A stretch of DNA of 64,000 bases, taken from IMG/VR virus record IMGVR_UViG_3300025645_000002, positions 6,742 to 70,741 of that record; one strand, 5' to 3'. Within the stretch, counting starts at the first letter, position 1, and every line of letters starts with the position of its first letter. Below, piece after piece: positions 2,668-26,000 of the stretch. A program made the position numbers and the translations under genes. This stretch comes from a virus. Below the pieces are notes generated by a model. That model was not told where the DNA came from. It did no database searches and saw only the letters and a list, made by a program, of their open reading frames with translations.

Positions 2668-2941
2668 TGATTATCACCTCTGGTGTAGCTAACGTGTTTC
2701 CATCAGTTCCTAGTGCCCGGACACTAAACGGATAGTCCCCCACGATAAGAGGCTCCGTCCCTTCCAACTTCACGTCGAAAGTCCCGATCAACAGATCGAT
2801 CGGGATCACGGAGAACTGGAGCGCAGGGAATTTACAAATAACAGTGACTTCAGACACTTCCAGGGGTGCCCCTACTGCGTCTGTCCATGTGAAGCGCATG
2901 ACCTTGTCCGCGCCCCTGTAAACGGTGATTCCTGACGCCAT
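2657..2941 (-). CDS. Small beta-rich tail-fibre adaptor (BppU-N-like)
   Basis: MASGITVYRGADK...VIINVR; overlaps the start of the tail fibre gene. Confidence 0.55.
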   Translation of the reverse strand: MASGITVYRGADKVMRFTWTDAVGAPLEVSEVTVICKFPALQFSVIPIDLLIGTFDVKLEGTEPLIVGDYPFSVRALGTDGNTLATPEVIINVR

Positions 2942-3049
2942 CTGTGCACTCCGCCATTTCGTTTTTGTGGTAAATTCTCCGCTATGATAGAGGAAATTTT
3001 CACACCAAACCAAACCACACCACAAACGACTATAATAGGGAATGTCATC

Positions 3050-3256
3050 ATGAGATTACGCACTTCAAAGCTCTTCGCTCTCGAAGGCGCTGCCGAAGCA
3101 TTTATGGGCAGTCTGCCCGCTGGCTCGGAGCCTCTCATCATCCCCAACGTCAATGCTGAAGACAAAGCTCGGGCATACCCAAACCCACGCATTGAATCTT
3201 TCAAGGTTGCGTATTGGGACATCCCGCAAGCATTCCTCAAAGGAACACCAACATGA
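3050..3256 (+). CDS. Hypothetical protein
   Basis: ATG downstream of TATAAT; ATGA overlap with thyX. Confidence 0.55.
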   Translation: MRLRTSKLFALEGAAEAFMGSLPAGSEPLIIPNVNAEDKARAYPNPRIESFKVAYWDIPQAFLKGTPT

Positions 3257-4242
3257 CTATTTTCAAAGGCCCTCAAGAAATGGAAGTCGAGGTCATTCTC
3301 GCTTCCAGAGCAGACGGCTGCCAGCCGCTCTACACTGTCCGCTGCCGCTACCCCCGCATCATCCACGGCGAGATCATGACGCACCGCGATTTCTCTCGCA
3401 ACGCCCGCAGCTCTCGCGCTGTACCAATCAAGACCATGCTCAATGAAGTCCGCAATTCCCCCTTTGTCCCTTGGCATTGGGGCAAGAACCAAAAAGGGAT
3501 GCAAGGCGCCGGTGATCACAACCAGCCTGTCATCATCCCTTATGGTTTTGTCAACGATTGGGACTTTGACACGCCTATTTCTCGTGAAGACGCCTGGCTC
3601 TACGCACGCGACCGAGCTGTTGAAGTGGCCGAAGCCTTTATGACGGCAGATTATCACAAACAGATCCCCAACCGTTTGCTCGAACCTTTCTCTTGGATCG
3701 ACACACTGATCTCCTCCAGTCGCTGGGACAACTTTCTCTGGCTCCGTGAACATGGAGACGCAGAACCCCACTTTCAGGATCTGGCAAAGCTTGTCGGTTT
3801 GGCTATCAAAGATGCTGAGCTTCAAGAGCTTGAGCCAAATCAATGGCACCTGCCCTACATCACAACCGAAGATCGTAAATTCGTCGAAGGTAACGGGATG
3901 ACCGCTGCCTTCAATGTTAGCTTTCTGGCCAAAATCTCTGCCGCCCGTTGCGCACGCATCTCCTACAAGCCTTTCGACGGAGATGCATCCTACGAGCGTG
4001 AGATTGAACGCTACGATAGCCTTCTCAGCTCTGACCGTGTCCATGCCTCTCCTCTGGAGCATCAGGCCACACCAGACCACATGATAACCATTGAAGGCAT
4101 GATGCTGGACAAAGAAGGAAATGACATAGAGCACCTTGGTGTTCGTGATTTCTGGAATAGTCCACGACTTCACGGCAATCTCCCTGGCTGGATCCAATAC
4201 CGCAAGACGGTCCCCGGCGAGGTCTACCGAGACCCTGTCTGA
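3253..4242 (+). CDS. thyX: Flavin-dependent thymidylate synthase
   Basis: THRDFSRNARSSRAVP, HKQIPNRLLEPF, ARCARISY and HASPLEH motifs. Confidence 0.88.
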   Translation: MTIFKGPQEMEVEVILASRADGCQPLYTVRCRYPRIIHGEIMTHRDFSRNARSSRAVPIKTMLNEVRNSPFVPWHWGKNQKGMQGAGDHNQPVIIPYGFVNDWDFDTPISREDAWLYARDRAVEVAEAFMTADYHKQIPNRLLEPFSWIDTLISSSRWDNFLWLREHGDAEPHFQDLAKLVGLAIKDAELQELEPNQWHLPYITTEDRKFVEGNGMTAAFNVSFLAKISAARCARISYKPFDGDASYEREIERYDSLLSSDRVHASPLEHQATPDHMITIEGMMLDKEGNDIEHLGVRDFWNSPRLHGNLPGWIQYRKTVPGEVYRDPV

Positions 4243-4319
4243 TCTCCAAGTGTTCGCACCATTCTTGTTTTTTGGTGCGGACACGCATTTCATCATTAAC
4301 CCTTAAAGGAGGCACGCAC

Positions 4320-5378
4320 ATGTCCACCATGTTTGGCTGCTCACTTAAATCCGCATATCAAATTTGCGTTGATTATCTCATGGCTGGCATCACGCCCTCA
4401 CTTGAATCCAGTCCCGGCCTTGGCAAATCTGCCCTTGCCAAGAAGATTGCCAAAGACTTCAACCTCAAGCTCATCGACATCCGTTTGAGCCAAGTCACGC
4501 CAGAAGATCTCATGGGCTTACCTATGCGGAATGAAGCAGGCCGTGCTTACTACGCCACCATGGAGATGTTCCCTCTCGAAGGGGACCCCATCCCTGAAGG
4601 CTTCGACGGTTGGCTCCTCTTCTTTGACGAGTTCAACTCCGCGGCCAAATCTGTACAGGCTGCGGCCTACAAACCTATTCTCGACCACATGGTCGGCCAG
4701 GAACGTCTGCACGAGAACTGCTATGTCATGTCGGCAGGCAACCTCCAAACTGACCGGGCCATCGTTATCAACGGCGGCACGGCCATTCAAAGCCGCGTCG
4801 GTCACATCACCATCGAGCACAATGAACCAGAGTTCATGGAGCACATGATCGACGCTGGCTTCGATTACCGCGTCCGTGGCTTCATCGACTACAAGCCGGA
4901 GTACGGGCATTACTTTGACCCCGATCACCATGACCGCACGTTCTCTTGTCCCCGCACTTTGGAGTTCCTCTCGGACTACGTCAAACCCAAGGCGACTGAA
5001 GACATCACGGCCACTGGTTGTGCCGGTCTGGTCTCTGACGGCGTTGGTGTCGAATTCGTTGAGTACATCAAGGAATACGCCAATCTCCCTAAGTACGGCG
5101 CCATCGTTGCACACCCGGATTCTACAGGTATCCCGCAACGAGGAGCCACGTGCTTCGCGGTGACGTCAATGCTGATCGAATACTACGATCGCGCAGACTT
5201 CAAAACTGTCTCGAAATACATTTCTCGGTTCTCGCCTGAGTTCCAGATCCCGTATTACCGCGCAGTCAAAGTCAAAGACCCAGCAATCATCAAGGACCCG
5301 CAGTTCAAAGCACGTATCGGCGAACTCACGCGCTTCTTGAGTGACTCTGAACTCACCGGTCTCCACGAGGCCGCATAA
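4320..5378 (+). CDS. MoxR-like AAA+ ATPase (N4 gp24-like)
   Basis: Walker A SSPGLGKS, Walker B LLFFDE, AGN sensor; AAGGAGG RBS. Confidence 0.85.
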   Translation: MSTMFGCSLKSAYQICVDYLMAGITPSLESSPGLGKSALAKKIAKDFNLKLIDIRLSQVTPEDLMGLPMRNEAGRAYYATMEMFPLEGDPIPEGFDGWLLFFDEFNSAAKSVQAAAYKPILDHMVGQERLHENCYVMSAGNLQTDRAIVINGGTAIQSRVGHITIEHNEPEFMEHMIDAGFDYRVRGFIDYKPEYGHYFDPDHHDRTFSCPRTLEFLSDYVKPKATEDITATGCAGLVSDGVGVEFVEYIKEYANLPKYGAIVAHPDSTGIPQRGATCFAVTSMLIEYYDRADFKTVSKYISRFSPEFQIPYYRAVKVKDPAIIKDPQFKARIGELTRFLSDSELTGLHEAA

Positions 5379-5395
5379 CCAATCTGGAGCATCCA

Positions 5396-6580
5396 ATGGA
5401 TCTTGTTACCCTTCCCCAATACGAACACGTCACCCCGTTACCGGAAGCGCAACTGGACAAGTTGCTCCAGAAAACCAAAGGACGTTTGTTCTTCAAGCAC
5501 AACTCCGCATTTGTCGCACGTCTCTTGTGTGACATCGACATCTTCTGGGATTACTCCTGCAAGACTGCATGGACCGACGGGGAGCGTATGGGCATCAACC
5601 CGGCGCTGTTCACTTGGCTTGAGCCAGAGGAACGCGTTACGCTTCTCGTCCATGAAGTCTGGCACCCAGGCTTCGGTCACGTCATTCTTTCCCGTATCGG
5701 CAAACGCGTCTTTGATATTTGGAACCAAGCAGCTGACCATGTGATTAATACCATGCTGCGCTCAGAGGGATTCACGTTTGGTCCCAAACTTATGTCCCTC
5801 AACCCATGTATCGACATGCGTTTTCACAAGATGTTCACCGAGCAGGTCTACGACATCCTGTATAACGAGCAGCCTCCCTGCCCTGAAGGAATTCACGGCT
5901 CAACGGAACCCCTAAGCGGTCAGGACATTGTCCCCTTTAAGGGAGAGAAAGGCATCATCGAACGCAAGATCGTCACAGCACAACAGGCGGCCAAAGCGGC
6001 GAACCAAGCAGGCAGCACTCCGGGTGAAACCACCCTCCTTCTTGATGAGTACCTGCATCCAAAACTGCCTTGGGAAGTCCTTGTCCAGAACTGGTTCACT
6101 GCGCTCTCCCATGACGATTACTCCATGCGGCGCCCTAACCGACGCTACGAGGACATGTATCTCCCGTCCCTTCTCGCCAATGAGGGTCTCGAGCATCTCA
6201 TGTATTTCTGGGACATCTCTGGCTCAGTTTCAGATCAGGACATCGCTCAGTCCAACGCTGAACTGCGTCACGTCCATGATAACCTCCAGCCTGAGCTCAT
6301 GTCGCTTGTCACATTCGATCATGAACTCCAGGATTTCTACGAATTCGAACGGGATCTTCCCTACGATAAAGTCGAAGTCACTGGCCGGGGTGGCACCTGT
6401 TTGAAGCCTGTGCTTGCACACATCAAAAAGCATCGTCCAACAGCGGCCATTATCTTCTCCGATCTTCACTGCGCGCCCATGAGAGAGGACCCCAAAATCC
6501 CTGTTCTCTGGATCGTCCTAAATAACCCCGATGCCACAGTCCCCTTTGGACGCATGGTTCACCTCGACACGCAAAGCTAA
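5396..6580 (+). CDS. Metallopeptidase-vWA protein (N4 gp25/DUF2201-like)
   Basis: TAWTDG, HEVWH zinc motif, MIDAS DISGS, GRGGT. Confidence 0.85.
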   Translation: MDLVTLPQYEHVTPLPEAQLDKLLQKTKGRLFFKHNSAFVARLLCDIDIFWDYSCKTAWTDGERMGINPALFTWLEPEERVTLLVHEVWHPGFGHVILSRIGKRVFDIWNQAADHVINTMLRSEGFTFGPKLMSLNPCIDMRFHKMFTEQVYDILYNEQPPCPEGIHGSTEPLSGQDIVPFKGEKGIIERKIVTAQQAAKAANQAGSTPGETTLLLDEYLHPKLPWEVLVQNWFTALSHDDYSMRRPNRRYEDMYLPSLLANEGLEHLMYFWDISGSVSDQDIAQSNAELRHVHDNLQPELMSLVTFDHELQDFYEFERDLPYDKVEVTGRGGTCLKPVLAHIKKHRPTAAIIFSDLHCAPMREDPKIPVLWIVLNNPDATVPFGRMVHLDTQS

Positions 6581-6589
6581 GGAACCAAC

Positions 6590-7111
6590 ATGTCTACAGT
6601 CAACGGACGCTCCCTCATCGAAGCAGGCCCCATCGCAAACATGCTTGAAGTCAAAGAGCGCCTTCATGGTGTCTCGCACGGCTTGACTGAAGCCGGATAC
6701 GACATCCGTCTCAAGCAGGCCATCAAGTTCTCCCGCAGTGTCGGGGGCAGACCAATGGTTGAGGTTGACGATGCCTACGGTCAAGCAGTGCACACTGCCC
6801 GTGGCCGCTTTGTCATTGCTTCTGCCATGGAACGCTTCACCATGCCTGACGATCTCGTCGGCGTGGTCCATGACAAGTCTACATGGGCACGCCAAGGCGT
6901 GTCTGTCTTCAACACCGTCATCGAGCCAGGTTGGCAAGGCTTCCTCACACTTGAGATCGTTTTTCACAGCGAGACAGAAGTCATCATTCCTGCTGGTGCA
7001 GGTATCGCACAAGTTCTCTTCTCACGTGTTGAGAACCATGCTAAATATGCGGGCAAGTATCAGGATCAAGCAGACGAACCAGTCTCTGCCATCCTCGAAT
7101 CCTCCTCATAA
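6590..7111 (+). CDS. dcd: dCTP deaminase
   Basis: AGYDIRL, DKSTWARQG, VIEPGWQGFLTLE and YAGKYQDQ motifs. Confidence 0.88.
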   Translation: MSTVNGRSLIEAGPIANMLEVKERLHGVSHGLTEAGYDIRLKQAIKFSRSVGGRPMVEVDDAYGQAVHTARGRFVIASAMERFTMPDDLVGVVHDKSTWARQGVSVFNTVIEPGWQGFLTLEIVFHSETEVIIPAGAGIAQVLFSRVENHAKYAGKYQDQADEPVSAILESSS

Positions 7112-7171
7112 AGTTGCCTCCCCCTGTGCCTGTGTCCTCGAACGCTTACCCAGCGTTTGGCAGGGGGCAAC

Positions 7172-7206
7172 TGTCTGGTCAGTTCCTATGCTGATCAGAC
7201 ATTTTT
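7172..7206 (+). terminator. Intrinsic terminator after dcd
   Basis: TGTCTGGTCAG/CTGATCAGACA stem followed by a T-run. Confidence 0.65.
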
Positions 7207-7230
7207 ATTCAAGAATATGGTTGTAGATCG

Positions 7231-7533
7231 TGCCATGGGTAGCCCCCTAACGGTCTTGCTTGCAAGGCAACCGTACCCGACAGCTCTGATTCCAGTCCGC
7301 CGCAAGGACGTTACGAGATGATGAGTTGTCGGGATTAATCCCTCGGGACGCCGGCTTGCTAGGTCGGGGTATAAAACATCAGTAAGCAGAGAAGCCCGGG
7401 CACATACTCGGATATCTGCTAAGTCGTCACGGCATAAGGACCTGCAAAGTCTGGACCCAGGGCGCAACCTCATAGCCCAGCCAGCGGTGGCTTTATAACA
7501 CTGCGCAGCCAGAGGGGGTAGCTGCCATGTGGC
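7231..7533 (+). ncRNA. Putative large structured non-coding RNA of unknown class
   Basis: Terminal helix plus at least six nested hairpins, G-U pairs on the + strand, several GCAA loops; no convincing ORF. Confidence 0.55.
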
Positions 7534-7616
7534 TTCTCCGGCCTAGTCTAATCCGCTAGGTTACTCCTGATCTGGTACGTGTGTGGGGGCTTATCACCCC
7601 CACACACACTCTTAAA

Positions 7617-7633
7617 TGTAAGGTATTCGGGGA
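7617..7633 (-). promoter_or_regulatory. Inverted iteron upstream of rep (autoregulatory operator)
   Basis: Reverse complement TCCCCGAATACCTTACA matches origin iteron TCCCCGAATCTCTTACA at 15/17. Confidence 0.75.
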
Positions 7634-7672
7634 ACCCTTCCCCATCTCCCCGTCAGGCCCTAATCTACAGGC

Positions 7673-8563
7673 ATGACAAACACTCCCAAAACCTACCGAG
7701 TCCTTGAACTCAAGCCCTCGTCTGACACAGCTTCGAAACCTTCGGAGCTTATCCAGATCCGCGGGCATGATGGGCTCACGCTCAATGCACGCAGAGCCAT
7801 TACCCTTCTCTGGCATAATGCTCACCGTCAGGGCATCGAAGAGAACAAGGACTATACCATTGAAATAGACCAGCTCATGCCCCTGCGGCACAAAGGCTAT
7901 GAAATGGTTGAAGAGGCTATTGAAGCCCTTATGACCACACTGATCATGGTCCCGCTCCCGGACGGCAGCACACGCCGTGTGCAAGTCCTGGGCGGGAATG
8001 ATCTCACAGACAAGAACCGCCGTGCGGGAACGCTGACCTACAGCTTCGACCGGCGTCTTGTGGAAGTGCTGCGTGACAGTGCCATCTGGGGTAAGATCTC
8101 GATCCCCGAACTCATGGCCTTCTCGTACCGCTACTCCATCACGCTTTATGAGCACATCTCTCAGTGGATCGGTCTGACGCAGATGCAGGGAAAGACCTTC
8201 AATCTCGAAGAATTCCGCCATGTCCTCGGTGTCACTCCCAACAAATATAAGGCATTCGGGGGATTGAACCAACAAGTCCTGAAACCTGTTCTGGCTGAGA
8301 TCAATGCATTGGCTCCATTCAATGTTGCTATACAGCCAATAAAAACAGGGAAAAGTGTAACGCACATCCGTCTGCAATGGTGGGAGAAGTCTATCCCAGA
8401 ACGCCAAGAGGCCTACGCTGAAGTCAATCGATCCAAGATCGGAAGACGTGCAAGGATCAAAGGCAACGTGGAATATGTGCTTCCTTCCGTCTCTTCACCA
8501 CAACGTCTTGTGCGTGATGCTAGGAAATCAGCCACAAAGAATGATGATTCACTGATTGAATAA
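7673..8563 (+). CDS. repB: Plasmid replication initiator, Rep_3 family (Rhodobacterales RepB-type)
   Basis: KPSELIQI..LTLNARRAITLLWHNAH, LTYSFD, YSITLYE, VLKPVLAEINALA; iterons directly downstream. Confidence 0.88.
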   Translation: MTNTPKTYRVLELKPSSDTASKPSELIQIRGHDGLTLNARRAITLLWHNAHRQGIEENKDYTIEIDQLMPLRHKGYEMVEEAIEALMTTLIMVPLPDGSTRRVQVLGGNDLTDKNRRAGTLTYSFDRRLVEVLRDSAIWGKISIPELMAFSYRYSITLYEHISQWIGLTQMQGKTFNLEEFRHVLGVTPNKYKAFGGLNQQVLKPVLAEINALAPFNVAIQPIKTGKSVTHIRLQWWEKSIPERQEAYAEVNRSKIGRRARIKGNVEYVLPSVSSPQRLVRDARKSATKNDDSLIE

Positions 8564-8735
8564 TCCCCGAATCTCTTACAGCAACTCCCCGAATCTCTTA
8601 TTTTACTGCCCATATTCCTTACCGGACTCCCCGTATATCATACACTTAGTCCCGTAAGCTTTTGATTTTGTTAAGCGAATACCGCTTAGAATCTATGAAT
8701 TCCAAATCAAAAGAGAATCTCCCGAATCCCTTACA
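8564..8735 (+). repeat. Iteron array and AT-rich stretch (plasmid oriV)
   Basis: TCCCCGAATCTCTTA-like units at 8564, 8586, 8607, 8628, ~8649 (21-22 bp period) and ~8719. Confidence 0.8.
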
Positions 8736-8888
8736 CTTGTAACTCGCCAATAGCGGGAATTTTTCCTTGTGTCATTGCCCTCTTTTTTGGTAACACCACA
8801 CCACACCACACCTGTTCTCCCTCCTCCCCAGGTTCGGTGCTTCAGGCCGGTCCAGCCTCCTCCTCCCAGAGTTCACTGGACCGGTCTT

Positions 8889-9134
8889 TTATTTAGGGAC
8901 TTTGTTGCCTTGAACATAGTACGCCATCAGAACCCCAACCATCTCACCGTTGGTTCTCCGCTCGGTCATACACAGCTGCCGAAAGTTCTCGTAGTCGCTC
9001 TCCGGCATACGCACAGACATCTGCACAACTGGGTTTGCTTCGCGCCTGCCCCAACGCTTACTGCGCGCTGCGACGAGTTCAGGGTTCTTTTCGGCTTCTT
9101 GAGCCAATCCTTCAAAGTTCAAACTTTTAGCCAT
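8889..9134 (-). CDS. Ribbon-helix-helix partition adaptor (ParG-like)
   Basis: Flexible N-terminus plus VVQMSVRMPESDYENFRQLC RHH; overlaps the parA stop. Confidence 0.72.
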   Translation of the reverse strand: MAKSLNFEGLAQEAEKNPELVAARSKRWGRREANPVVQMSVRMPESDYENFRQLCMTERRTNGEMVGVLMAYYVQGNKVPK

Positions 9135-9825
9135 TACGACCTCCATCATGGTTAAGGCGAGGTTCTCTTACCCAGCCCAGAAGCTCACGCACCTCTTCTC
9201 CAAAGAGGTCGGCGTTAGCCATCGCCTTCTCAACGCCACTGACCTCAACTCTGTCGAGATCGTGCAGCGTTCCCCCGTAATTATGCAAAGAGGAATAAGC
9301 AGTGCGGTTGTGCAATTCGATGTCAAACGCGCCTACCTTCGCTCTTACCTGTGCATTCAGGGATTTTGCCAACCGCGACTTCACCGCGGCTTGCGTACGC
9401 GCAAACAAGATCCTCACCGGGATCTCCCTACGCATCGACCGAGCCTCAAGATTTACTTGAGCCAGTGTCTCGATCGCTCCTTCGGCATCCGGCTGTTCGT
9501 CTCCCATGGGGATGATCACAAGATCACTCTCCCCCATGGCAAATGCATTCAGCCGGGTGGCCGCTCCTTCCAGGTCCAGAATAACGAAATTGAAGTCCCG
9601 GTCAGCGATCGCAATCGCATCATGGATTTCTCTCTCGCTCGTGCAAGACAGCACTCTGATATTCTCAGGAAGATTTGCTTTCGTGGCCCACGCCTTCAAG
9701 CGTTGAGCGGGATCTGCATCAATAACGCAAACCCGGCTTCGTTGAGCCAACGTGACGGCAAGTATAATTGCCGACGTGGTCTTACCAGCACCCCCTTTGG
9801 AGGATGCAAATGTGATGATCGCCAT
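9127..9825 (-). CDS. parA: ParA partition ATPase (short, type Ib)
   Basis: Deviant Walker A SSKGGAGKTT, IDADP, ILDLEG; no N-terminal HTH; GGAG RBS. Confidence 0.92.
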   Translation of the reverse strand: MAIITFASSKGGAGKTTSAIILAVTLAQRSRVCVIDADPAQRLKAWATKANLPENIRVLSCTSEREIHDAIAIADRDFNFVILDLEGAATRLNAFAMGESDLVIIPMGDEQPDAEGAIETLAQVNLEARSMRREIPVRILFARTQAAVKSRLAKSLNAQVRAKVGAFDIELHNRTAYSSLHNYGGTLHDLDRVEVSGVEKAMANADLFGEEVRELLGWVREPRLNHDGGRNG

Positions 9826-9888
9826 ACTCAGACTCCAGTTTCCCAATCAAAGCCGTGCTCCCACCATACACATACTTTTTTAGATTTG

Positions 9889-9918
9889 TGTATCAAATTG
9901 TATCAAACTGCATCAAAT
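9889..9918. repeat. Three tandem 10-bp repeats upstream of parA (candidate centromere/operator)
   Basis: TGTATCAAAT TGTATCAAAC TGCATCAAAT. Confidence 0.6.
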
Positions 9919-9980
9919 CACCCCAAATCGCTGCTTTCATGTAGTTTTTTGGGGTTTTTTCGTAAGGAAGGCCTTCTCTT

Positions 9981-10487
9981 ATGAGCTCCCCTACCGGTAT
10001 TTCTACCTCACACGACGAGATACACGCACTAGCTCTCATGGTTTCTGCTTCGCTGGATACCCCCCTTCACCTCATAAAGAGGGACGGTAAGCTCACCCAC
10101 GCTCTTATGCGTGTCCGTCAGCGCATCATACGGGAAGTGCATTCTGTGGGGCGTTACAAGCGCCAGACCATTGCCGACTTCTTCGGCCTTTCAATCTGCA
10201 CAGTGACGGCCTCCCTCACAGAAGAGCAGAAATGTAAGCCCCGCCCCTACACACCCGAAGAGGACGCCTTGATCGCCTCGATGCACCGTAGCGGAAGTTC
10301 GATCCCACAGATCCTCAAGCACATATCCTCCCGCTCAGCCTCCTCCATCCGCAGACGCTTGGCTCATCTCAAGAAAGGAGATCCATCGATCTCCCGTGAC
10401 CACCAGCCCACATATCTGGGATGCGTCCCTCCGTTAATGCTCGAGCTTGCTCGTCGAGAGAATGAACGGATGCGGAGTAATTTATAA
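9981..10487 (+). CDS. Putative DNA-binding regulator (DnaA-C-like HTH plus Myb/GcrA-like HTH)
   Basis: RVRQRII..QTIADFFGLSICTV and YTPEEDALI..GSSIPQI..RSASSIRRR. Confidence 0.55.
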   Translation: MSSPTGISTSHDEIHALALMVSASLDTPLHLIKRDGKLTHALMRVRQRIIREVHSVGRYKRQTIADFFGLSICTVTASLTEEQKCKPRPYTPEEDALIASMHRSGSSIPQILKHISSRSASSIRRRLAHLKKGDPSISRDHQPTYLGCVPPLMLELARRENERMRSNL

Positions 10488-10551
10488 CTCCCCATTCCGT
10501 TTTTTTGAGGGGGTCTTCCAGAAACTCCCACTCCTCAACGAAAGACATACC

Positions 10552-11925
10552 ATGACCTCCCTCAATCCTGACCAACTGAAGGCAGCCAATGCCTTCCTAG
10601 ACTTCATGCTCTCCGATGATATCTATGCCGTCATCACCGGCCCTGCTGGTGTCGGAAAGACCTTCCTCATGGAGCACCTCTCCAACAACGGTATGAAGAT
10701 GTACGCCGATGCATGTACTCTTATACAGGAAGAGCCAAAATACACTGAGACGCACTTCACAGCCACAACCAACAAAGCCGCTGAAGTTCTCGGTACATCC
10801 ATTGGCAAGCCTGTCAGCACCATCCACTCATTCTTGGGTCTCAAGATTCAACGGAACTTCGACACAGGCAAAGCCTTCTTAACCAAGTCGCGCAACTTCC
10901 ATATTCGCGAGGGTGTCGTCGTCTTCATTGACGAAGCTTCTACAATCGACACCGACCTCATGAAGTTTCTCGATATAGGCCTGCCTAATTGCAAGATTGT
11001 CTTTGTAGGTGATCACGCTCAGATGGCCCCGGTCAACGAAGACATCTCCCCCGCATTCCTTATCGGTAAGCCAGAGAACTGCTACACGCTGACCACGCCT
11101 GTGCGTAACGCCGATACCCCAGCACTCATGGCTCTTTGCCAGCAGCTGCGTGACACTGTCGAGACAGGTATCTTCAAGCCTATCGTGGCTGTCCCTGGCG
11201 TCATCGAGTACCTCACACCAGATCACATGGAAGAAGGTCTGGGGTACGTCTTCGAAGATCCCGATCCTTCTTGCCGTGTCCTGTGCTTCACAAATGACCG
11301 CGTCAAAGACTACAACGCCCACATCCGCGAAGATGTCCGCTCTCTTCCGGCGCACCTGACCGTAGGTGAAGCTGTCGTTGTCGGTGACTCCTACCAGCGC
11401 GGCCAACTCACATTCTCCGTCGAGCAGCAACTCACCATCACGTCTGTTGGACCTGACTTACCGACCGGCTACGAGTATGAGGGTGAGCCTGTCATGGCTC
11501 GTGACGTCGGCTTTGGTGATGCCGACCCTGACGCACCCTTCTTTGGCGCCCCCGTCTGCACCAACCCTCACGTCCTCAAGAGCGCCCTTGCAGTGGTCAA
11601 GCGGCGTAAGGACTGGCGCACCTTCTACGAGATGAAAGACCGCTTCCTGGATATCCGGGATAAGGCCTCTTGCACCGTCTATAAATCACAGGGCTCCTCC
11701 TACGATTTCGTCTTCGTGGATCTGGGGAATATCGGAACCTCTTTCGATGCCCAGCAGGTAGCGCGCATGATCTATGTCGCTGTCTCCCGAGCACGCCATA
11801 AGGTCTTCTTCTATGGTGAGCTCCCCAATCGCTACAACGACTCCAAAGGAGCTCAGCTATGGATCCCAAAGAATGGGCCGAACTCATCTCAGGAAAACTC
11901 CTCGAATACGACCGAGGCCGCCTGA
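10552..11925 (+). CDS. Dda/RecD-like SF1B DNA helicase
   Basis: LNPDQ, GPAGVGKT, IDEAS, GDHAQ, TVYKSQGS, YVAVSRA. Confidence 0.92.
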   Translation: MTSLNPDQLKAANAFLDFMLSDDIYAVITGPAGVGKTFLMEHLSNNGMKMYADACTLIQEEPKYTETHFTATTNKAAEVLGTSIGKPVSTIHSFLGLKIQRNFDTGKAFLTKSRNFHIREGVVVFIDEASTIDTDLMKFLDIGLPNCKIVFVGDHAQMAPVNEDISPAFLIGKPENCYTLTTPVRNADTPALMALCQQLRDTVETGIFKPIVAVPGVIEYLTPDHMEEGLGYVFEDPDPSCRVLCFTNDRVKDYNAHIREDVRSLPAHLTVGEAVVVGDSYQRGQLTFSVEQQLTITSVGPDLPTGYEYEGEPVMARDVGFGDADPDAPFFGAPVCTNPHVLKSALAVVKRRKDWRTFYEMKDRFLDIRDKASCTVYKSQGSSYDFVFVDLGNIGTSFDAQQVARMIYVAVSRARHKVFFYGELPNRYNDSKGAQLWIPKNGPNSSQENSSNTTEAA

Positions 11926-12350
11926 GTGAAAACAAAAGCGAACTGATTCTAAATCACGCAAAGTTAACCGGTAACCACACCGGTTTTCTTTTCGGGGGGA
12001 GATTCATCTCGAACTTGCCCCCGGTACAGCACCGGAATGTCGTCAAGAGCATGCTCCATCCCCTCCTCCATGATGACGCTCGTCTGTATCTTGATGACGT
12101 CAAGCTGGCCGATCGTGAAGAGATGCAAATTAGGCAGGGCGTCTATTCGCTCCTGCAGCACTGCAATGATTTTCAAGATGCCCGAGACGCTCTTCCTGAT
12201 GCCATCGTCAATCTCTTTCAAGCTTTGTCGATGTTCAAACGTACCCGGCCTGAAGCTTATCCCATCGCACATAGCGAGATCAAAATGCACAACTGGAAGA
12301 TCATTTCAGATGTCATTTTCACCCGCTTCGCCAGTGCCCTAATCAACTGA
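11859..12350 (+). CDS. Conserved N4-like hypothetical protein (gp38-like)
   Basis: Syntenic position between helicase and polymerase. Confidence 0.65.
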   Translation: MDPKEWAELISGKLLEYDRGRLSENKSELILNHAKLTGNHTGFLFGGRFISNLPPVQHRNVVKSMLHPLLHDDARLYLDDVKLADREEMQIRQGVYSLLQHCNDFQDARDALPDAIVNLFQALSMFKRTRPEAYPIAHSEIKMHNWKIISDVIFTRFASALIN

Positions 12351-12357
12351 GGCCCCC

Positions 12358-14379
12358 ATGCAATACCAGACATTCACAGACATCGAAGCTACCACCTACC
12401 CTGTTGCTGTTCTGGTTCCTAAGCTGGAAGTAGACGGCATCGTCCGTGAGTATCTGGATCCAAGCACAATCAATCCCCAAGACGTTGTCGCATACCAGCT
12501 TCATATCGCTGGCAAGACGACGCCTATGGTTGAGCAGAAAGCATTTCTCGATGAGATGCTGTCCATCTTTGAAGACTTGGAAACCAAGTACATCCTTGTC
12601 AGCGATCCCGCATACTTCAAAACACTCACCGGCGTGAATAAGGCAGACGCCTATCTTGGTTACGTCTTGCCAAATACCTACCCCGCTTCACAGGCCCACC
12701 GCTTCAATGTGATTTTCATCCCCAACTTCCGTCAGGTCTTCTATGACCCGCAGCGGACACGGAGCAGAATCACCCAGGCTCTGGACGCTCTTCACAGCCA
12801 CAGGAACGCGCATTACAGGCCCCCGGGCGATTCCATCATCCACTTCGAGGCCTACCCCAGCACAGTCACTGACATCGCTGCTTGGCTCCAGAAGCTCATG
12901 GACATGCCGTCCCTCACAGCTGACATCGAAGCCTTCTCTCTGCGTCATTACGATGCCGGTATAGGCACCATTTCTTTTGCATGGAACAAACACGAAGGGA
13001 TAGCCTTTCCCGTCGATCTGGGAACCAATCCAGTTGAGATACGCCGCCTTCTCGTCAAGTTCTTTCGTGAATACAAAGGCAATCTCAAATGGCACAACGG
13101 CAGCTATGATCTGACCGTCCTTATCTACCAACTCTTCATGGACGATATCTTGGACCAAGAAGGCCTGCTCACAGGTCTCGAAGTCATGGCGCAGCGCGAC
13201 TGGGACGACACCAAGCTCGTCGCCTATTTCGCAACCAACTCCTGCGCCGGCAACAAACTCAGCCTCAAAGATCAGGCGCAAGAGTTTGCAGGCAACTATG
13301 CTGAATCTGAGATCAAGGACATCACCAAGATCCCCCTGCCCGATCTCCTGCGCTACAATCTCGTTGACTCTCTGGCGACTTGGTATGTCTGGGACAAGCA
13401 CTGGGACACCCTGATCGCTGACGATCAGCTCACCACCTACACTGATCTCTTCATGCCTGCCCTCACGGACATCATTCAGATGCAACTGACAGGTATGCCT
13501 GTCGATATCAGCAAGGTCTCCTACGCCAGGGAAGCTCTTGAGATCGAAATGGCTGAGGCGGTACGCCGCATTCAGACAGAACCAGTGGTGCAAGCTTTCA
13601 CGTATGAGCTTGATATGGAGCACGTCGCCAAACGGAATGCGGCGCTCAAAACCAAGACCATCAAAATGGGCGAAGAGCCACAGGAGTTCAATCCTAACTC
13701 GGGTCCCCAGCTTATCCGGCTTCTCTACGAAGATGTCGGCTTACCTGTTCTTGAACGGACAGACACCAAGCTCCCTGCCACTGGCGGGGAAGTCTTGGAA
13801 AAGCTCAAGGCACATACCGAAGATCTCCAGATCATCAACTTGCTCGATGCTCTGATGAATTTCAAAAAGGTCGAGAAGATCCTGTCTTCTTTTATCCCGG
13901 CACTCGAAGGCTCCGTTCAGGGTCCTGATGGCTGGTACTACCTCTTTGGTTTCTTCAATCTTGGGGGGACTATCTCTGGTCGCCTGTCTTCCAACAGCCC
14001 CAATCTTCAGAACCTCCCTGCCAACTCCAAGTTTGCAAAAGTCATCAAAGACTGTTTCGTTGCGCCTGATGGACAACTGTTCATTGGTCTCGACTTTGCA
14101 TCACTTGAAGACAGGATCTCTGCTCTGACCACCAAAGACCCAAACAAGCTTGCCGTTTATACGGAAGGCTTCGACGGTCACTGCCTCCGGGCACAGAGCT
14201 ATTTCTCTGAAGAGATGCCTGACATCGAACGTGCGCCTGAAAATGCGCGCTGCTTTGAAGCCACGATCAATGGCTCCTCAGTCTTTTTCCATGAACATGA
14301 ATCTGTGACTTACCTCGGCCAATCTATGTCCGGTGGCGAGTTATGGGATCGTCTCTCCAACGTGCAGACAGCTGCATAA
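12358..14379 (+). CDS. Family A DNA polymerase, N-terminal part (3'-5' exonuclease to motif A)
   Basis: ADIEAF, HNGSYD, YNLVD, GRLSSNSPNLQN, DFASLEDR. Confidence 0.92.
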   Translation: MQYQTFTDIEATTYPVAVLVPKLEVDGIVREYLDPSTINPQDVVAYQLHIAGKTTPMVEQKAFLDEMLSIFEDLETKYILVSDPAYFKTLTGVNKADAYLGYVLPNTYPASQAHRFNVIFIPNFRQVFYDPQRTRSRITQALDALHSHRNAHYRPPGDSIIHFEAYPSTVTDIAAWLQKLMDMPSLTADIEAFSLRHYDAGIGTISFAWNKHEGIAFPVDLGTNPVEIRRLLVKFFREYKGNLKWHNGSYDLTVLIYQLFMDDILDQEGLLTGLEVMAQRDWDDTKLVAYFATNSCAGNKLSLKDQAQEFAGNYAESEIKDITKIPLPDLLRYNLVDSLATWYVWDKHWDTLIADDQLTTYTDLFMPALTDIIQMQLTGMPVDISKVSYAREALEIEMAEAVRRIQTEPVVQAFTYELDMEHVAKRNAALKTKTIKMGEEPQEFNPNSGPQLIRLLYEDVGLPVLERTDTKLPATGGEVLEKLKAHTEDLQIINLLDALMNFKKVEKILSSFIPALEGSVQGPDGWYYLFGFFNLGGTISGRLSSNSPNLQNLPANSKFAKVIKDCFVAPDGQLFIGLDFASLEDRISALTTKDPNKLAVYTEGFDGHCLRAQSYFSEEMPDIERAPENARCFEATINGSSVFFHEHESVTYLGQSMSGGELWDRLSNVQTAA

Positions 14380-15018: not shown

Positions 15019-15783
15019 ATGCTGACTATCACTGATATGATCGACGAGATCTCTGAGACGTCAGCCTCTGCGCATGACGTCGCTCGGATCAACTCTGTCG
15101 CTACTCTCTATCCAAAGCAGCGGCAGATCTCCAAGACACCTACCTTCGCGCTCACTTATCAGGGCACCTTCGTCACGCTTATGGTCAAGTGCGGGTTCAC
15201 CAAAGAACTCGCCACGCAAATCTATGATAGATTCCATGGGCTTTACCGGGTCTCTGACGAGTGGGTCGATGCGCAGCTCAAGCAAGCCTCCAACACTGGC
15301 TACATCACCGCTGCATTCGGCCTCCGTGTGCGCACACCTCTGCTCAAGCAGGTTGTCATGGGAAACCGTGCTACGCCTTACGAGGCGGCCGCTGAAGGGC
15401 GCAGCGCAGGCAATGCGTTGGGACAGTCTTATTGTCTCCTCAACACACGGGCTTTGACCGAGTTTATGATCAAGGTCCGGGCACACCCGGAGTACCGCTA
15501 CCGCATCCGCCCTATCTCTCAGATCCACGACGCAACCTACATCCTCATCCCCGATGACATCGAGGTTCTGCGTTGGGTCAATAAGCACCTTGTCGAGGCT
15601 GTGGAGTGGCAGGACGATCCTGCCATTGCGCATGATCTCGTTAATCTGGGCGGAGAACTCTCTGTCTTCCACCCATCGTGGTCTCACGAAGCTGTCCTCA
15701 GCAATGGAGCCAGTGAAGACGACATCCGAACTGCAATTGCAGACCATCTCACCAAGCTACAGTCCAAAGGCATTGTAGTTTAG
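15019..15783 (+). CDS. Family A DNA polymerase, C-terminal part (motifs B and C)
   Basis: RQISKTPTFALTYQG, RSAGNALGQS, QIHDA; has its own AAGGAG RBS. Confidence 0.92.
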   Translation: MLTITDMIDEISETSASAHDVARINSVATLYPKQRQISKTPTFALTYQGTFVTLMVKCGFTKELATQIYDRFHGLYRVSDEWVDAQLKQASNTGYITAAFGLRVRTPLLKQVVMGNRATPYEAAAEGRSAGNALGQSYCLLNTRALTEFMIKVRAHPEYRYRIRPISQIHDATYILIPDDIEVLRWVNKHLVEAVEWQDDPAIAHDLVNLGGELSVFHPSWSHEAVLSNGASEDDIRTAIADHLTKLQSKGIVV

Positions 15784-23076: not shown

Positions 23077-26000
23077 CTACCACGGAAGCAAATTATCCGT
23101 GATCGCGTGGAACGGGTGGAGTTGCGGTGAATTCAGCCCCATCTCTGGTCCGAAGGAGAACGGTAGGCTGTCATCCATGTATTTACCGAACAGGGATCCT
23201 GACATAACACTGTCTACTCCGGCTGCAGGACCTACCTGCCCCATCATGACCAGCGACGACAATGGACGTTCCCGCATCATATTTGCAGAGACCTTCATGA
23301 TCCGTAGCGCATAGTTCATGAACCAGACCATGCCCATGCTTTCCAGATAATCCCGCCCACGTCCTGGCAAGCGGTTATACTGCACGAACTCTTCCATGAT
23401 GATATCAAGCACCTCGCGCTGGTCTTTACCCTGCGCAATGAGATGATCGTACAACACAGCCTTGGCGACGAAGTCACCATATTGGACCATCCGGTTCAGG
23501 CCTTTGAAGATCGCCGTATCCTTCGTGATCGCGATATTCCGGGCCACGGTGCCTGCTGACTCTGGCAAACGATCAACCGCTTTCTCGATGTAATCCATCA
23601 AACGGCCCTCACGCACGGCTACGTCCGCCTCTGTGAGGTCTTCTGAGATCGTGGAGAACTCACCCGCCTCAATCAAAGGAGCGATCGACATGCGCTTGTT
23701 TGCCGCCTCTAGGGACGCAATCCTTGCTTTGATCTTGTTACCCGCGTCTGTGTCTTCAATCCGCGCTGCATAAGAAATCTGCAGTTCGCTGATCTTCTCC
23801 TTGTTGCGCACATACTCTTGGATCTCCAAGATCTTCTCGCGTCCGCTTGTTGCAATCGTGTTCACCGGTACGCCTCGCAGTGTCAGATGCAATACGTTGG
23901 AGACAATGTTGGCCGTACCCACAACCGCGGATCTGACAATGATTGTTGTCTTCGCAACGCCAACCGCATCCTGCGCAAACATCTCACCCTTCTTGAGCCA
24001 AGGATATGCTCGCTTGCCTCCGATGAGTGTGACCAGATCCTTGACCACTTTCTGGGCTTTTGGATCAAGACGCGACTGTCCTGTCCACACATCTGTGATC
24101 GACGGAGCCCGATACCCTACCACATCTTCGATGAGATCTTTACGCACATAGAACGTATCAGGCGACTCGAAGATCTCCTCTGCGTATTCCTTGATCCCAG
24201 CACCCATTGTGGCCCATGCATCCTTGTAGATCTTATCTTTGATCTTTGGATCTGCAATGTTCACGTATTCGGCGCCACGTCCTTTGGCCAAACCCTCTTT
24301 GTAATTCTCCATCACACCATCGACGAGCACTTCGTTGAATTCGTGTGCTGCCTCTTCCTCAAGAAGACGTCCTGCCCACACACCGAGCATCCGCCCCATG
24401 TGCGTGTCTTTCTGAAGACCCCGTGTTTTGGCTGGATCCATGTGACGGTCATACCCCACAACATTCCAATCCTGATCAAAGATCGGCATCATGTACTCAC
24501 CCGGAGCCAAGTTATCGAGGCTTCCTGGCTGTGCACGTGCCATTCTCTCGCCAATACGGCCCGCCCTGACGCCTTTGAGTGTCCCTGCCACTGTATCGCT
24601 GCTCAGAGCCCCTGTAAGGACGCTGACGCCGCTGTACGTCGTGTGTACGGTCTGTGCTATGCCCTGCTTGAAGGTGGCTTTGCCTGCCGTTGTAGACTGG
24701 TAATAGCCCCGACGCTCACGCACATCCTCATCACGGCTACCATTGTAGTCACCAATGCGGACCCACCCCTGCATTTCCAGCTCTTGCTGGTTGCTGTCGA
24801 ATTCCACAACCACTTTTGAATTTGGCTGCGTTGCGTTTGGCACGTACCCATGCAGTGCATTGTGCGTCGCAATAGCCCTCTTCTCTGGATCAGCAGACAA
24901 AGTCTTTTCCAATTCCAGTGCGCGCACCGAAGCTGTCAGACCAATGACTGCATCCATTCCGGCACTCTCTTTTGCCATCAGATCGGCCATTGCTTTCTTC
25001 GATGCAGCGTCAGTCATCTGATACGCATAGAGCGCCACCAACCGATCGACCTGATCAATCGTTGCTTGGCTCACTGTAGCCGGATCTGGCCTCCCCTTCT
25101 CACCACCCAAGTGTGCAATTGCATAAGCATTCCGCAGCAAGTGTGTGCTGGTCAGTTCATCCGTTACACGGAAGCGCGCCAGAGCTTTTGCTTTGTCTGC
25201 GTACCGGCTTACGAAGTTTGGAGCCAATCCCTGAAGACCTTCCAGAGTGTCTGCAATTCGCTGGTCTACTGTCGCCGGGTTTGCCAGAAGTGCTTTGCTC
25301 TCAACCAGTCCCAGAATGCTCAGGCCTGTTGTGCCGATTGCCTTGTGTATCCCTGCCCATTCTTTGCCTTCAAGCTTACGGCTGAAAGCCTTAGCCAACG
25401 TCTCTGGTGTGTTTTCGCGGAAGTCCTGACGCAGCGCATCGATCTTGGCTTTGACCGGGTTGATCAAACGCAGCAAGTTCATGTTGCTTGTGTTTCCCCC
25501 ACGCAAGTCATGCAATGTGGCGCGTACTGTGTTCCAGCCCTCGATACTGTTGAGGAATGTCGTCATCGTATCACCGCGGGCTTCAGACTCTGTCTTCGAT
25601 CCCATGGCTGCAATGAAACTCATTGTGTTGAAGGCCAGCTTTTTGGTTTTATTGTCCGTGGCATTTGCACGTCCACGGGTGAACCGGCTTGCCTGTGTGC
25701 TCTTTGTATCCACGTACCCGGCGACCGCTGCGTTGGCTTTGTCGATCTGTTTGCTCAGTGCACCTGAAGCTTTATCCAGACGCGTCTCGCTATCGAGCGC
25801 CGAGATCCCTTGTGACAATGCGTCCAGTATCCGTCCAGCGGAACCCTGCCGGCCGATGTCCTTGAAGCTCAATCGAGCCAAAGCAGACATGGCGAAACTA
25901 CCTGCGGATTCAATCGCTGTGTCAAAGCTGCTGTACTCGAACTTCGCGCTCGGCGTCACTTCCATGCCCGCCAATGCTTCACGGAACAATGGGCTGCTTT

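Follow-up and report, generated by a model that had tools for sequence, protein, structure and literature searches.

The virus genome IMGVR_UViG_3300025645_000002 is a metagenome-assembled IMG/VR record of 70,741 bp, and the window analyzed in this work comprises its bases 6742-70741, a stretch of 64,000 nt. Within this window, between the N4-type genes for dCTP deaminase (dcd) and a helicase, lies a cassette composed of a gene for a Rep_3 initiator (rep), an array of iterons, a parA gene, and a small overlapping gene for a ribbon-helix-helix (RHH)-like protein. This cassette very probably constitutes a functional replicon and partition module. On balance, it is best understood as a low-copy plasmid maintenance module which has been built into a phage of the family Schitoviridae and is inherited vertically by a deep, uncultured clade, and we hold with moderate confidence that it endows these phages with a plasmid stage that can be inherited. 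N4 itself is a classic example of a virulent phage, and the wide use of its relatives, as well as proposals to employ them in therapy, assumes a strictly lytic life cycle. The genome described here combines a complete phage genome with plasmid replication and partition genes, that is, the gene content of a phage-plasmid.

An earlier note on this DNA had pointed to the locus. It is borne out with respect to the intact Rep_3 initiator, the iteron array directly after rep, the tandem repeats upstream of parA, the position of the cassette between dcd and the helicase gene, and the presence of a lytic replisome, while its statements on the RHH gene, the host, and the lifestyle require the qualifications given in the relevant sections. 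Coordinates refer to the window unless stated otherwise.

The Rep_3 Initiator and the Iteron Origin

The replicon consists of the following features:

7673-8563, plus strand: rep, encoding a Rep_3 initiator of 296 aa (Pfam Rep3_N 2e-8, 35.1 bits, cut-off 22.4; Rep3_C 3.2e-17, 62.9 bits, cut-off 21.1)
8564-8735, plus strand: iteron array directly after the rep stop codon, putative oriV core, made up of four direct repeats with start positions 8564, 8586, 8628, and 8719
7617-7633 (15-mer at 7619-7633), minus strand: inverted iteron in the rep promoter region, with 2 mismatches, 40-54 nt before the rep ATG
8660-8719, no strand assigned: AT-rich stretch between iterons 3 and 4, GC 0.30 against about 0.52 for the genome; by inference a candidate DNA-unwinding element
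8248-8262, minus strand: iteron-like inverted copy within the rep coding sequence, with 3 mismatches

Both Rep_3 domains of the rep product thus score above the Pfam cut-offs, and its WH2 domain gives a weak match to the RepE structure 1rep (0.009). A total of 1049 Rep homologues were found; an identical Rep occurs on 14 contigs, and relatives at 60-79% identity on further contigs.

The iteron is 15-17 bp long. The 15-mer TCCCCGAATCTCTTA is exact at 8564 and 8586, two positions which are 22 bp apart, and the third and fourth copies (8628 and 8719) each differ from it by 3 mismatches. When up to 3 mismatches are allowed, TCCCCGAATCTCTTA has 7 sites in the 64-kb window, 6 of which are located in 7619-8733; shuffled sequences contained 1.76 such sites on average, and none of 100 shuffles attained 7. 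The inverted iteron at 7617-7633 is a candidate operator for autorepression of rep. The iteron-like copy inside rep recurs about 550-575 nt past the start of the gene in four lineages (this phage, G029C1, L047, and L049).

The same layout was found in relatives. In 9 of the 10 N4-like genomes scanned, 3-4 direct repeats with a spacing of 21-22 bp directly follow rep, and an inverted iteron copy lies 54-93 nt upstream of rep, likewise in 9 of 10; L037 had no iteron array at the threshold used. The iteron sequence is lineage-specific, and the layout is constant across the N4-like relatives. In the near-identical pair L047 and L049, three tandem copies of TAACTCTGTGGATAA are present 82-107 nt after rep, beside the iterons, and each of them contains, on the other strand, a perfect copy of TTATCCACA, which we take to be the DnaA box motif.

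The ParA-RHH Partition Locus

The second half of the cassette is encoded on the opposite strand:

9127-9825 (open reading frame, ORF, 9127-9846), minus strand: parA, encoding a deviant-Walker-A ATPase, ParF-like (type Ib); the likely start gives 232 aa, beginning with MAIITFASSKGGAGKTT
8889-9134 (ORF 8889-9149), minus strand: small RHH-like gene, 81 aa from its likely start, with an 8-nt overlap with the parA stop
9889-9918, no strand assigned: 10-bp direct repeats, 3 x TGTATCAAAT (Tandem Repeats Finder score 46), upstream of parA

ParA matches the Pfam families VirC1 (1e-18), AAA_31, and CbiA. It carries KGGAGKTT from residue 10, a motif invariant in the clade, and is devoid of an N-terminal DNA-binding domain. 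Its best match among solved structures is ParF of TP228 (4dzz; 1.6e-21 over residues 1-179), and its identity across the clade is 64-69%.

The 81-aa protein is conserved in 9 relatives and shows an invariant QxSxR...ERxTNGxM pattern. In the AlphaFold2 model, its C-terminal part has a pLDDT of 86-91, and the top Foldseek matches of this model are CopG (TM 0.85, probability 0.99), ParG, AmrZ, and Arc, all of which are RHH proteins, with none of the matches reaching E<=0.001. The short ParA and its overlapping neighbor, as described in the earlier note, were found as such, and the RHH label of the latter comes from these model matches. The protein is a ParG/CopG-like candidate for the roles of centromere-binding protein and operon repressor. 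The predicted complex of ParA with the RHH-like protein scored 0.20 (mark 0.32), which speaks neither for nor against binding.

The three TGTATCAAAT repeats are a candidate centromere and par operator, and 10-bp-phased CAAA-type arrays can be read at the equivalent place in the printed sequences of relatives. Dispersal of the RHH operator throughout the genome was also considered and rejected, as TGTATCAAAT has only 2 more matches within 1 mismatch, which is the chance level.

The arrangement resembles ParF/ParG/parH of TP228, which likewise combines a small ParA without an N-terminal DNA-binding domain, a small partner gene just downstream, and short repeats upstream; ParG, the RHH partner in TP228, is among the top fold matches of the 81-aa protein. 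In contrast to TP228, the repeat unit is different, and the RHH-like protein has no detectable sequence similarity to ParG.

The N4-like Genome and the Position of the Cassette

The source record was rated 100% complete by CheckV and classed as having direct terminal repeats. Its ends share an exact 118-bp overlap. This overlap was considered as a sign of a circular plasmid and rejected; it is uninformative on plasmid form because a circular assembly graph, an N4-type terminal repeat, and concatemers assemble alike. The features that place the cassette within the phage genome are as follows:

6590-7111, plus strand: dcd, dCTP deaminase, left flank (Pfam DCD 4.6e-21; 54% identity to the dCTP deaminase of Sinorhizobium phage ort11); it lies to the left of rep in relatives
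7172-7201, plus strand: terminator-like hairpin after dcd, with a 12-bp stem and a T-run, found by a consensus scan
9981-10487, plus strand: orf168, encoding a weak helix-turn-helix (HTH) protein (Pfam HTH_23 0.0035, below cut-off), divergent from parA
10552-11925 (ORF 10447-11925), plus strand: superfamily 1 (RecD-like) helicase, right flank (Pfam AAA_30 3.2e-22, AAA_19, UvrD_C_2; 42% identity to the ort11 helicase)
23077-33645, minus strand: virion RNA polymerase (RNAP), an ORF of 3522 aa (phrog_2206, 1845 bits, full-length profile match)

Both flanks of the cassette are thus supported by Pfam; the helicase start was inferred from the point at which relatives begin to align. The hairpin after dcd may insulate rep from upstream phage transcription. 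The PHROG search also identified Pol A (phrog_17), primase (phrog_2135, 939 bits), portal, major head protein, and TerL. Both RNAP II subunits are recognizable, being 46% and 50% identical to ort11 RNAP1 and RNAP2, and SSB-, exonuclease-, and Sak4-like genes were found through similarity to the same phage. The N4-type core (two-subunit RNAP II, Pol A, primase, SSB, portal, major capsid protein (MCP), and TerL) is therefore present in N4 order, and the genome groups with Schitoviridae in the core tree. The lytic replisome, with genes for helicase, Pol A, primase, and SSB, is intact. The Pol A gene is split into 12358-14379 and 15019-15783, with an ORF of 221 aa containing an Nmad5 domain (8e-19) between the two parts.

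According to MCP, the nearest isolated phages are Erwinia phage S6 (70%) and the N4-like phages of Sinorhizobium, Rhizobium, and Agrobacterium (65-67%). Among these, the lytic alphaproteobacterial phage ort11 (NC_049469.1) has the backbone and gene order in common with the present genome (MCP 67%, TerL 67%, Pol A 53%). Its dcd-helicase locus differs, as it contains the thymidylate synthase gene (thyA), rIIA, and rIIB in place of the cassette, and no ORF matching any of these three genes was found in the present genome.

Integrity of the Assembly

Assemblies of four public runs, made independently of the record, were compared with it over 5000-13000; the comparison used contigs and not raw reads, and three of these runs are possible sources of the record itself. 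In one run, a single contig of 16,318 bp spans the whole of 5000-13000 with 0 differences. Two runs cover it with two contigs each, overlapping at 7055-7084 and with equal depth on either side. The fourth run, which is not a suspected source, covers it in eight pieces with one substitution and bridges 5827-7424 and 9515-11307. A chimera at the junctions, a danger raised in the earlier note, was thus not found: contigs of independent assemblies bridge both junctions, and the cassette recurs in the clade. The cassette is not an assembly chimera. Since contigs rather than reads were compared, and three of the four runs are possibly the source, the comparative evidence is the stronger argument on this point.

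Conservation, Inheritance, and Selection across the Clade

A scan of IMG/VR with an alignment of Rep sequences returned 15 contigs, and a scan with the single Rep protein returned none. An N4-type primase (49-59% identity) is encoded by 11 of the 15 contigs and the N4 portal by 3 of them, namely the long ones. In all 12 related records examined by local tblastn, the gene order is dcd-rep-(RHH, parA)-helicase-orf163-Pol A-primase. Identities to the present phage in these records are 53-61% for Rep, 65-71% for ParA, 44-62% for the RHH-like protein, 44-50% for the helicase, 55-57% for the portal, and 32-37% for the virion RNA polymerase. Altogether, at least 17 further N4-like contigs from different metagenomes carry the same cassette at this position. 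The earlier note's proposal to look for Rep_3 with ParA in Schitoviridae therefore met with success among uncultured N4-like contigs; the Schitoviridae phage records contained neither the present Rep nor the present ParA, though 479 phage records match the N4-type MCP.

A scan with a helicase alignment, which added five new contigs, led to 80 N4-like loci being fetched, of which 67 had at least 2.5 kb upstream of the helicase gene. ParA and the RHH-like protein are encoded in 9 of the 12 loci with a helicase identity of at least 43%, and neither ParA nor Rep was found in any of the 55 loci below 43%. A metagenome scan with a ParA alignment, which picks up generic Walker-A patterns, gave 2 close loci among the 80 kept.

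The Rep tree, built from 45 sequences, places the 10 N4-like Reps, which have long branches, on one side of a branch with an SH-aLRT support of 93, and the 35 Reps from plasmids, bacteria, and other sources on the opposite side. A tree of MCP, portal, and TerL covering 13 genomes unites the five phages with Rep in a single clade (93/91) and leaves outside it the eight cassette-free N4-like genomes. Within the clade, the branching order, (this phage,(G015,G029C1)) and (G005,G009), is common to the Rep and core trees. The ratio of nonsynonymous to synonymous substitution rates (dN/dS) was determined in four close pairs: Rep gave 0.02-0.08, ParA 0.02-0.17, and the RHH-like protein 0-0.03, and helicase, polymerase, and primase gave 0.006-0.10. 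The rep, parA, and RHH genes are intact in all cassette-bearing relatives. The agreement of the trees, the low dN/dS values, and the lineage-specific iterons in a constant layout lead to the conclusion that the cassette was acquired once, long ago, and has been kept under selection. It is thus old, vertically inherited, and subject to selection as strong as that acting on essential phage genes.

Variants of this architecture were also encountered. L174, a 73.9-kb record, keeps ParA and the RHH-like gene without Rep_3; between dcd and the RHH gene it has an ORF for a winged-helix protein of 177 aa (3437-3970 of that record, minus strand), with only sub-threshold matches to GntR and HTH_36, and this record may represent a replicon swap. 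Four other IMG/VR contigs (L038, L039, L048, and L050) encode a Rep of the same family without the N4 primase or portal and have their iterons upstream of rep. One of the four bears the provirus label, and terminal repeats are present in two (45.8 and 54.6 kb). The four contigs may represent further phage-plasmids or else plasmids entered as viruses.

Plasmid Relatives, Origin of the Module, and Host

Rep shares 56-62% identity with initiators encoded on closed plasmids from cultured alphaproteobacteria, namely Pukyongiella, Paracoccus, Acidibrevibacterium, Thioclava, and Acuticoccus. Its relatives at 57-63% identity are distributed among Paracoccaceae, Roseobacteraceae, Methylobacteriaceae, Aurantimonadaceae, Acetobacteraceae, and Hyphomonadaceae. 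An example of such plasmids is p4 of Pukyongiella litopenaei (NZ_CP043622.1; Rep 61.6%), in which parA, a gene annotated as 'stability/partitioning determinant', and rep are consecutive. Another example is pPspOM44 of Paracoccus sanguinis (NZ_CP051544.1; Rep 57.8%), which encodes ParA, an overlapping CopG-family gene, and rep, and whose other genes, for metabolism, toxin-antitoxin pairs, and a relaxase, are those of an ordinary plasmid. Among 35 bacterial Rep loci, a ParA homologue was found in 20, mostly within about 1.5 kb of rep, and an RHH homologue was detectable in 4.

The alphaproteobacterial Rep_3/ParA/CopG plasmids and the phage cassette have the same three adjacent gene families (Rep 58-62%, ParA 41-56% in related loci) and iterons beside rep. 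They differ in arrangement: in the plasmids, parA-RHH comes before rep, co-directional with it or divergent, and the iterons are upstream of rep where examined, whereas in the phage, rep comes first, the iterons are downstream, parA-RHH is convergent on rep, and the whole set lies within a phage genome. To judge from these sequence comparisons, the module is a rearranged maintenance module of an alphaproteobacterial plasmid family, and the finding shows modular exchange between alphaproteobacterial plasmids and phages.

The host suggested in the earlier note, probably Rhodobacteraceae, proved too narrow, given that the Rep relatives belong to six alphaproteobacterial families and that the habitat is freshwater. 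The host is probably a freshwater alphaproteobacterium.

Precedents for Plasmid-Borne Tailed Phages

Phage-plasmids are a known kind of element, represented by P1 (RepA with iterons, ParAB-parS), N15, and SSU5. Like the virus described here, they combine a full tailed-phage genome and separate lytic replication with their own plasmid replication and partition. They differ in that they have known repressors or immunity and occur as plasmids in isolates, whereas no repressor is visible in the present phage. In addition, the present virus belongs to Schitoviridae, in which early transcription depends on an RNA polymerase delivered by the virion.

A closer parallel is found in Acinetobacter baumannii RBH2, whose complete genome includes pRBH2-3 (NZ_CP110465.1; loci L080 and L082), a circular 'plasmid' of 75,126 bp comprising a whole N4-like genome in which ParA, a recombinase, and an HTH protein are encoded. 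A sewage-derived Schitoviridae record (OK149216.1, Acinetobacter phage vB_IME_Ab2712, marked UNVERIFIED) encodes a ParA 100% identical to that of pRBH2-3. Similar to the present genome, pRBH2-3 is N4-like and has parA and, after it, a small ORF, both oriented against the neighboring phage genes. It differs in belonging to a distant lineage (portal 43%), in having no annotated Rep_3, in having a recombinase and HTH protein of its own, and in a ParA that is unrelated at the level searched. pRBH2-3 shows only that N4-like genomes can be plasmid-borne. No paper on this element was found in the literature.

The description of N4-like phages as classically virulent, given in the earlier note, also needs a caveat. 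Integrated N4-like proviruses, together with 54 N4-like genomes carrying an integrase, a transposase, or a diversity-generating retroelement, have been reported (PMC10654107, mSystems 2023). The strictly lytic view of the family is thus already challenged. Those proviruses likewise argue against strict lysis, and the route taken there is chromosomal integration. The words 'plasmid' and 'partition' are absent from the main text, and the supplementary tables of that paper may list such genes. In the literature searched, no N4-like or Schitoviridae phage-plasmid and no Rep or ParA in N4-like phages was found described, a statement on which the same supplements may bear. With this limit, the genome shows a phage-plasmid architecture in a family for which the plasmid route was not found in print.

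Proposed Mechanism and Alternative Explanations

The proposed mechanism is modeled on Rep_3 plasmids (RepE of F, pi of R6K) and on ParF/ParG of TP228. After injection, the terminally redundant genome would circularize. Host RNA polymerase would transcribe rep, with Rep limiting its own expression at the inverted iteron, as well as the parA-RHH operon, which the RHH protein would limit at the 10-bp repeats. Rep would bind the iterons, open the AT-rich stretch, and recruit the host replisome for theta replication, while nucleoid-bound ParA-ATP and the RHH protein on its repeats would segregate the copies at division. In this way, the phage would persist in dividing cells as a plasmid, either in true lysogeny or in a long-lived carrier state, and the lytic burst would draw on the phage's own helicase, Pol A, primase, and SSB. 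It is possible that the lytic program stays off because early transcription requires the virion-delivered RNA polymerase, so that the cascade could not restart after the loss of this enzyme.

A number of observations weigh against a heritable plasmid stage. Searches for the N4 portal gave 0 hits among 401 genomes sampled from the family of the Yoonia (Paracoccaceae) genome G016, 0 among 401 from the class of G016, and 0 among 401 from the order of the Rhodocyclaceae genome G033. The clade, which the earlier note proposed to seek as a closed circle in a bacterial assembly, was thus not seen in these 1,203 genomes, nor in PLSDB, where the portal matched only an unrelated Acinetobacter element. 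Among 32 genomes with a Rep relative, one contained the portal; this is a 'Luteolibacter' metagenome-assembled genome with portal and Rep on a 74,951-bp contig, which may be mis-binned. The sequence occurs in 9 runs, all of them freshwater metagenomes and none RNA, and 8 of the 9 are a possible source of the record. The earlier note had seen no integrase in the window, and this holds for the entire 70,741-bp genome, in which no integrase (PF00589), resolvase (PF00239), or HTH_3 repressor was found; no repressor, anti-repressor, or toxin-antitoxin pair was recognized among the 29 proteins scanned. No gene for lysogeny control or multimer resolution is thus apparent. The product of orf168, the sole nearby regulator candidate, has no homologue in any related record and is thus not conserved. 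The 81-aa gene has no Pfam match, its RHH label resting on fold comparison. No TTATCCACA occurs within 1 mismatch in 8500-8900. A simple E. coli-type scan of 7000-10600 returned 0 sigma-70-like promoters against 2.5 expected; this null is not taken against host transcription because alphaproteobacterial promoters depart from the E. coli consensus. The persistence as a plasmid prophage put forward in the earlier note is therefore supported in part: the replicon and partition gene set is complete, conserved, and under selection, and no case of carriage was seen in the genomes and plasmids searched.

The absence of clade members from those genomes and from PLSDB, together with the lack of a repressor or lysogeny switch and the intact N4 lytic gene set, would also be expected if the cassette were an accessory of lytic growth only. 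In that case, Rep and the iterons would provide an extra origin for the host replisome early in lysis, and ParA and the RHH-like protein would position or regulate replicating DNA, with no heritable plasmid stage; purifying selection is compatible with any function. We regard this as a serious alternative, yet a distinctly less probable one. In N4-like phages that have no cassette, replication relies on an equivalent set of helicase, Pol A, primase, and SSB, so that Rep fills no visible gap. Type Ib partition, as established for ParF/ParG of TP228, acts at cell division, and a burst needs none. As a set, the three genes correspond to the maintenance module found on real plasmids, and the autoregulatory inverted iteron would be copy-limiting, the opposite of what a burst needs. 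The plasmid stage is thus favored because it is hard to see what a lytic burst would gain from a partition locus and because the inverted iteron would limit, rather than boost, Rep.

The abundance of plasmids with 57-63% identical Reps and related ParA proteins in the host group leaves room for another function, in which the iterons, Rep, and the par site would act as a weapon or decoy, titrating or handcuffing the Rep and Par proteins of resident plasmids or rival phages (incompatibility) without maintaining the phage. This is very unlikely, as the iterons vary by phage lineage and track their own Rep, as in a self-contained replicon, the phage Reps form a long-branched clade of their own apart from plasmid Reps, and titration needs no full origin layout with an AT-rich stretch. 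Least probable of all, and close to negligible, is that the locus is a plasmid-phage chimera or a recently captured, decaying piece of a plasmid. The record is indeed a metagenome assembly that was compared with assembled contigs and not with raw reads; however, independent assemblies of four runs cover the region, one of them in a single contig with 0 differences and with even depth on both sides in others, the gene order recurs in at least 17 contigs from different metagenomes, the three genes are intact everywhere with a dN/dS of at most 0.17 in close pairs, and the Rep tree mirrors the core-gene tree.

A more far-reaching form of the plasmid-stage reading may be considered, although we find it improbable. 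The members of this deep, subfamily-level Schitoviridae clade could be true temperate phage-plasmids without a classical CI-type repressor. Such phages would be silent by default, since the virion RNA polymerase is needed, and only the host-transcribed rep and par genes would be on; the RHH protein or another clade-specific binder may silence the genome through arrays of ACACC-type pentamers, which are described in the following section.

Other Features of the Locus and the Genome

Arrays of at least three ACACC-type pentamers start at 3002, 8793, 30887, 42901, 53192, 55988, and 56416, and 5 of these 7 are intergenic according to the ORF table. The number of arrays per genome is 7 in this phage, 12 in G009, 4 in G005, 2 in G029C1, and 1 in G015, against 0.02-0.06 in shuffled sequences; ort11 and pRBH2-3, two N4-like genomes without the present cassette, have 0 each. 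Similar arrays occur upstream of parA in relatives. The arrays may be sites of a clade-specific DNA-binding protein.

Two hairpins are predicted at 8790-8897 (plus strand). Their loops contain anti-Shine-Dalgarno motifs of the CCUCCUCC type, and a U-run comes after the second one. The stretch folds with a z-score of -4.99, a stability equaled by 0 of 200 shuffles. The region has a sub-threshold Rfam match to the alphaproteobacterial small RNA (sRNA) ar14 (24.9 bits against a gathering threshold of 58.8; E 0.069), and no Rfam family reached its gathering threshold in the 64-kb window. No conservation of the hairpins was found at the DNA level in relatives, although G015 has the motif at an analogous place. 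The region may encode a phage-borne ar14-like sRNA, which would be a hint at an alphaproteobacterial host. Upstream of rep, the untranslated stretch 7231-7533 (plus strand) has a folding z-score of -2.0, with 4 of 100 shuffles folding equally well, and 76 nt of the region preceding rep (7473-7548) are 79% identical to a stretch just upstream of rep in G029C1.

Further observations concern other parts of the genome:

58149-58568, plus strand: ORF with a NADAR domain (8e-24, above cut-off) in the early region
genome 1144-11037 (window start to 4296), minus strand: oppositely oriented block of 10 kb, between RNAP II and a gp24-like ATPase
2872-4296, minus strand: gene within this block for a protein of 474 aa

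The 10-kb block encodes an Amidase_3 endolysin and two proteins of no known family, of 1293 aa and 474 aa, neither of which has a Pfam or PHROG match. For the 474-aa protein, the best score in a protein atlas search was 0.78, which gave no lead; a homologue of this protein directly adjoins rep in G005 and G015.

Significance for the Family Schitoviridae

A clade with a selected plasmid replicon and partition locus implies a second, non-integrative route of persistence in this family. Metagenomic 'lytic' calls for such genomes may consequently be mistaken. Long-term silence must then be compatible with the N4 transcription cascade, whose starting point is an injected polymerase, and if the improbable reading of these phages as temperate without a repressor were true, it would represent a new way for a phage of the 'virulent' type to become heritable. 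The cassette is about 3 kb in size, and its lineage-specific pairs of iteron with Rep and of repeat with RHH protein provide ready specificity controls.

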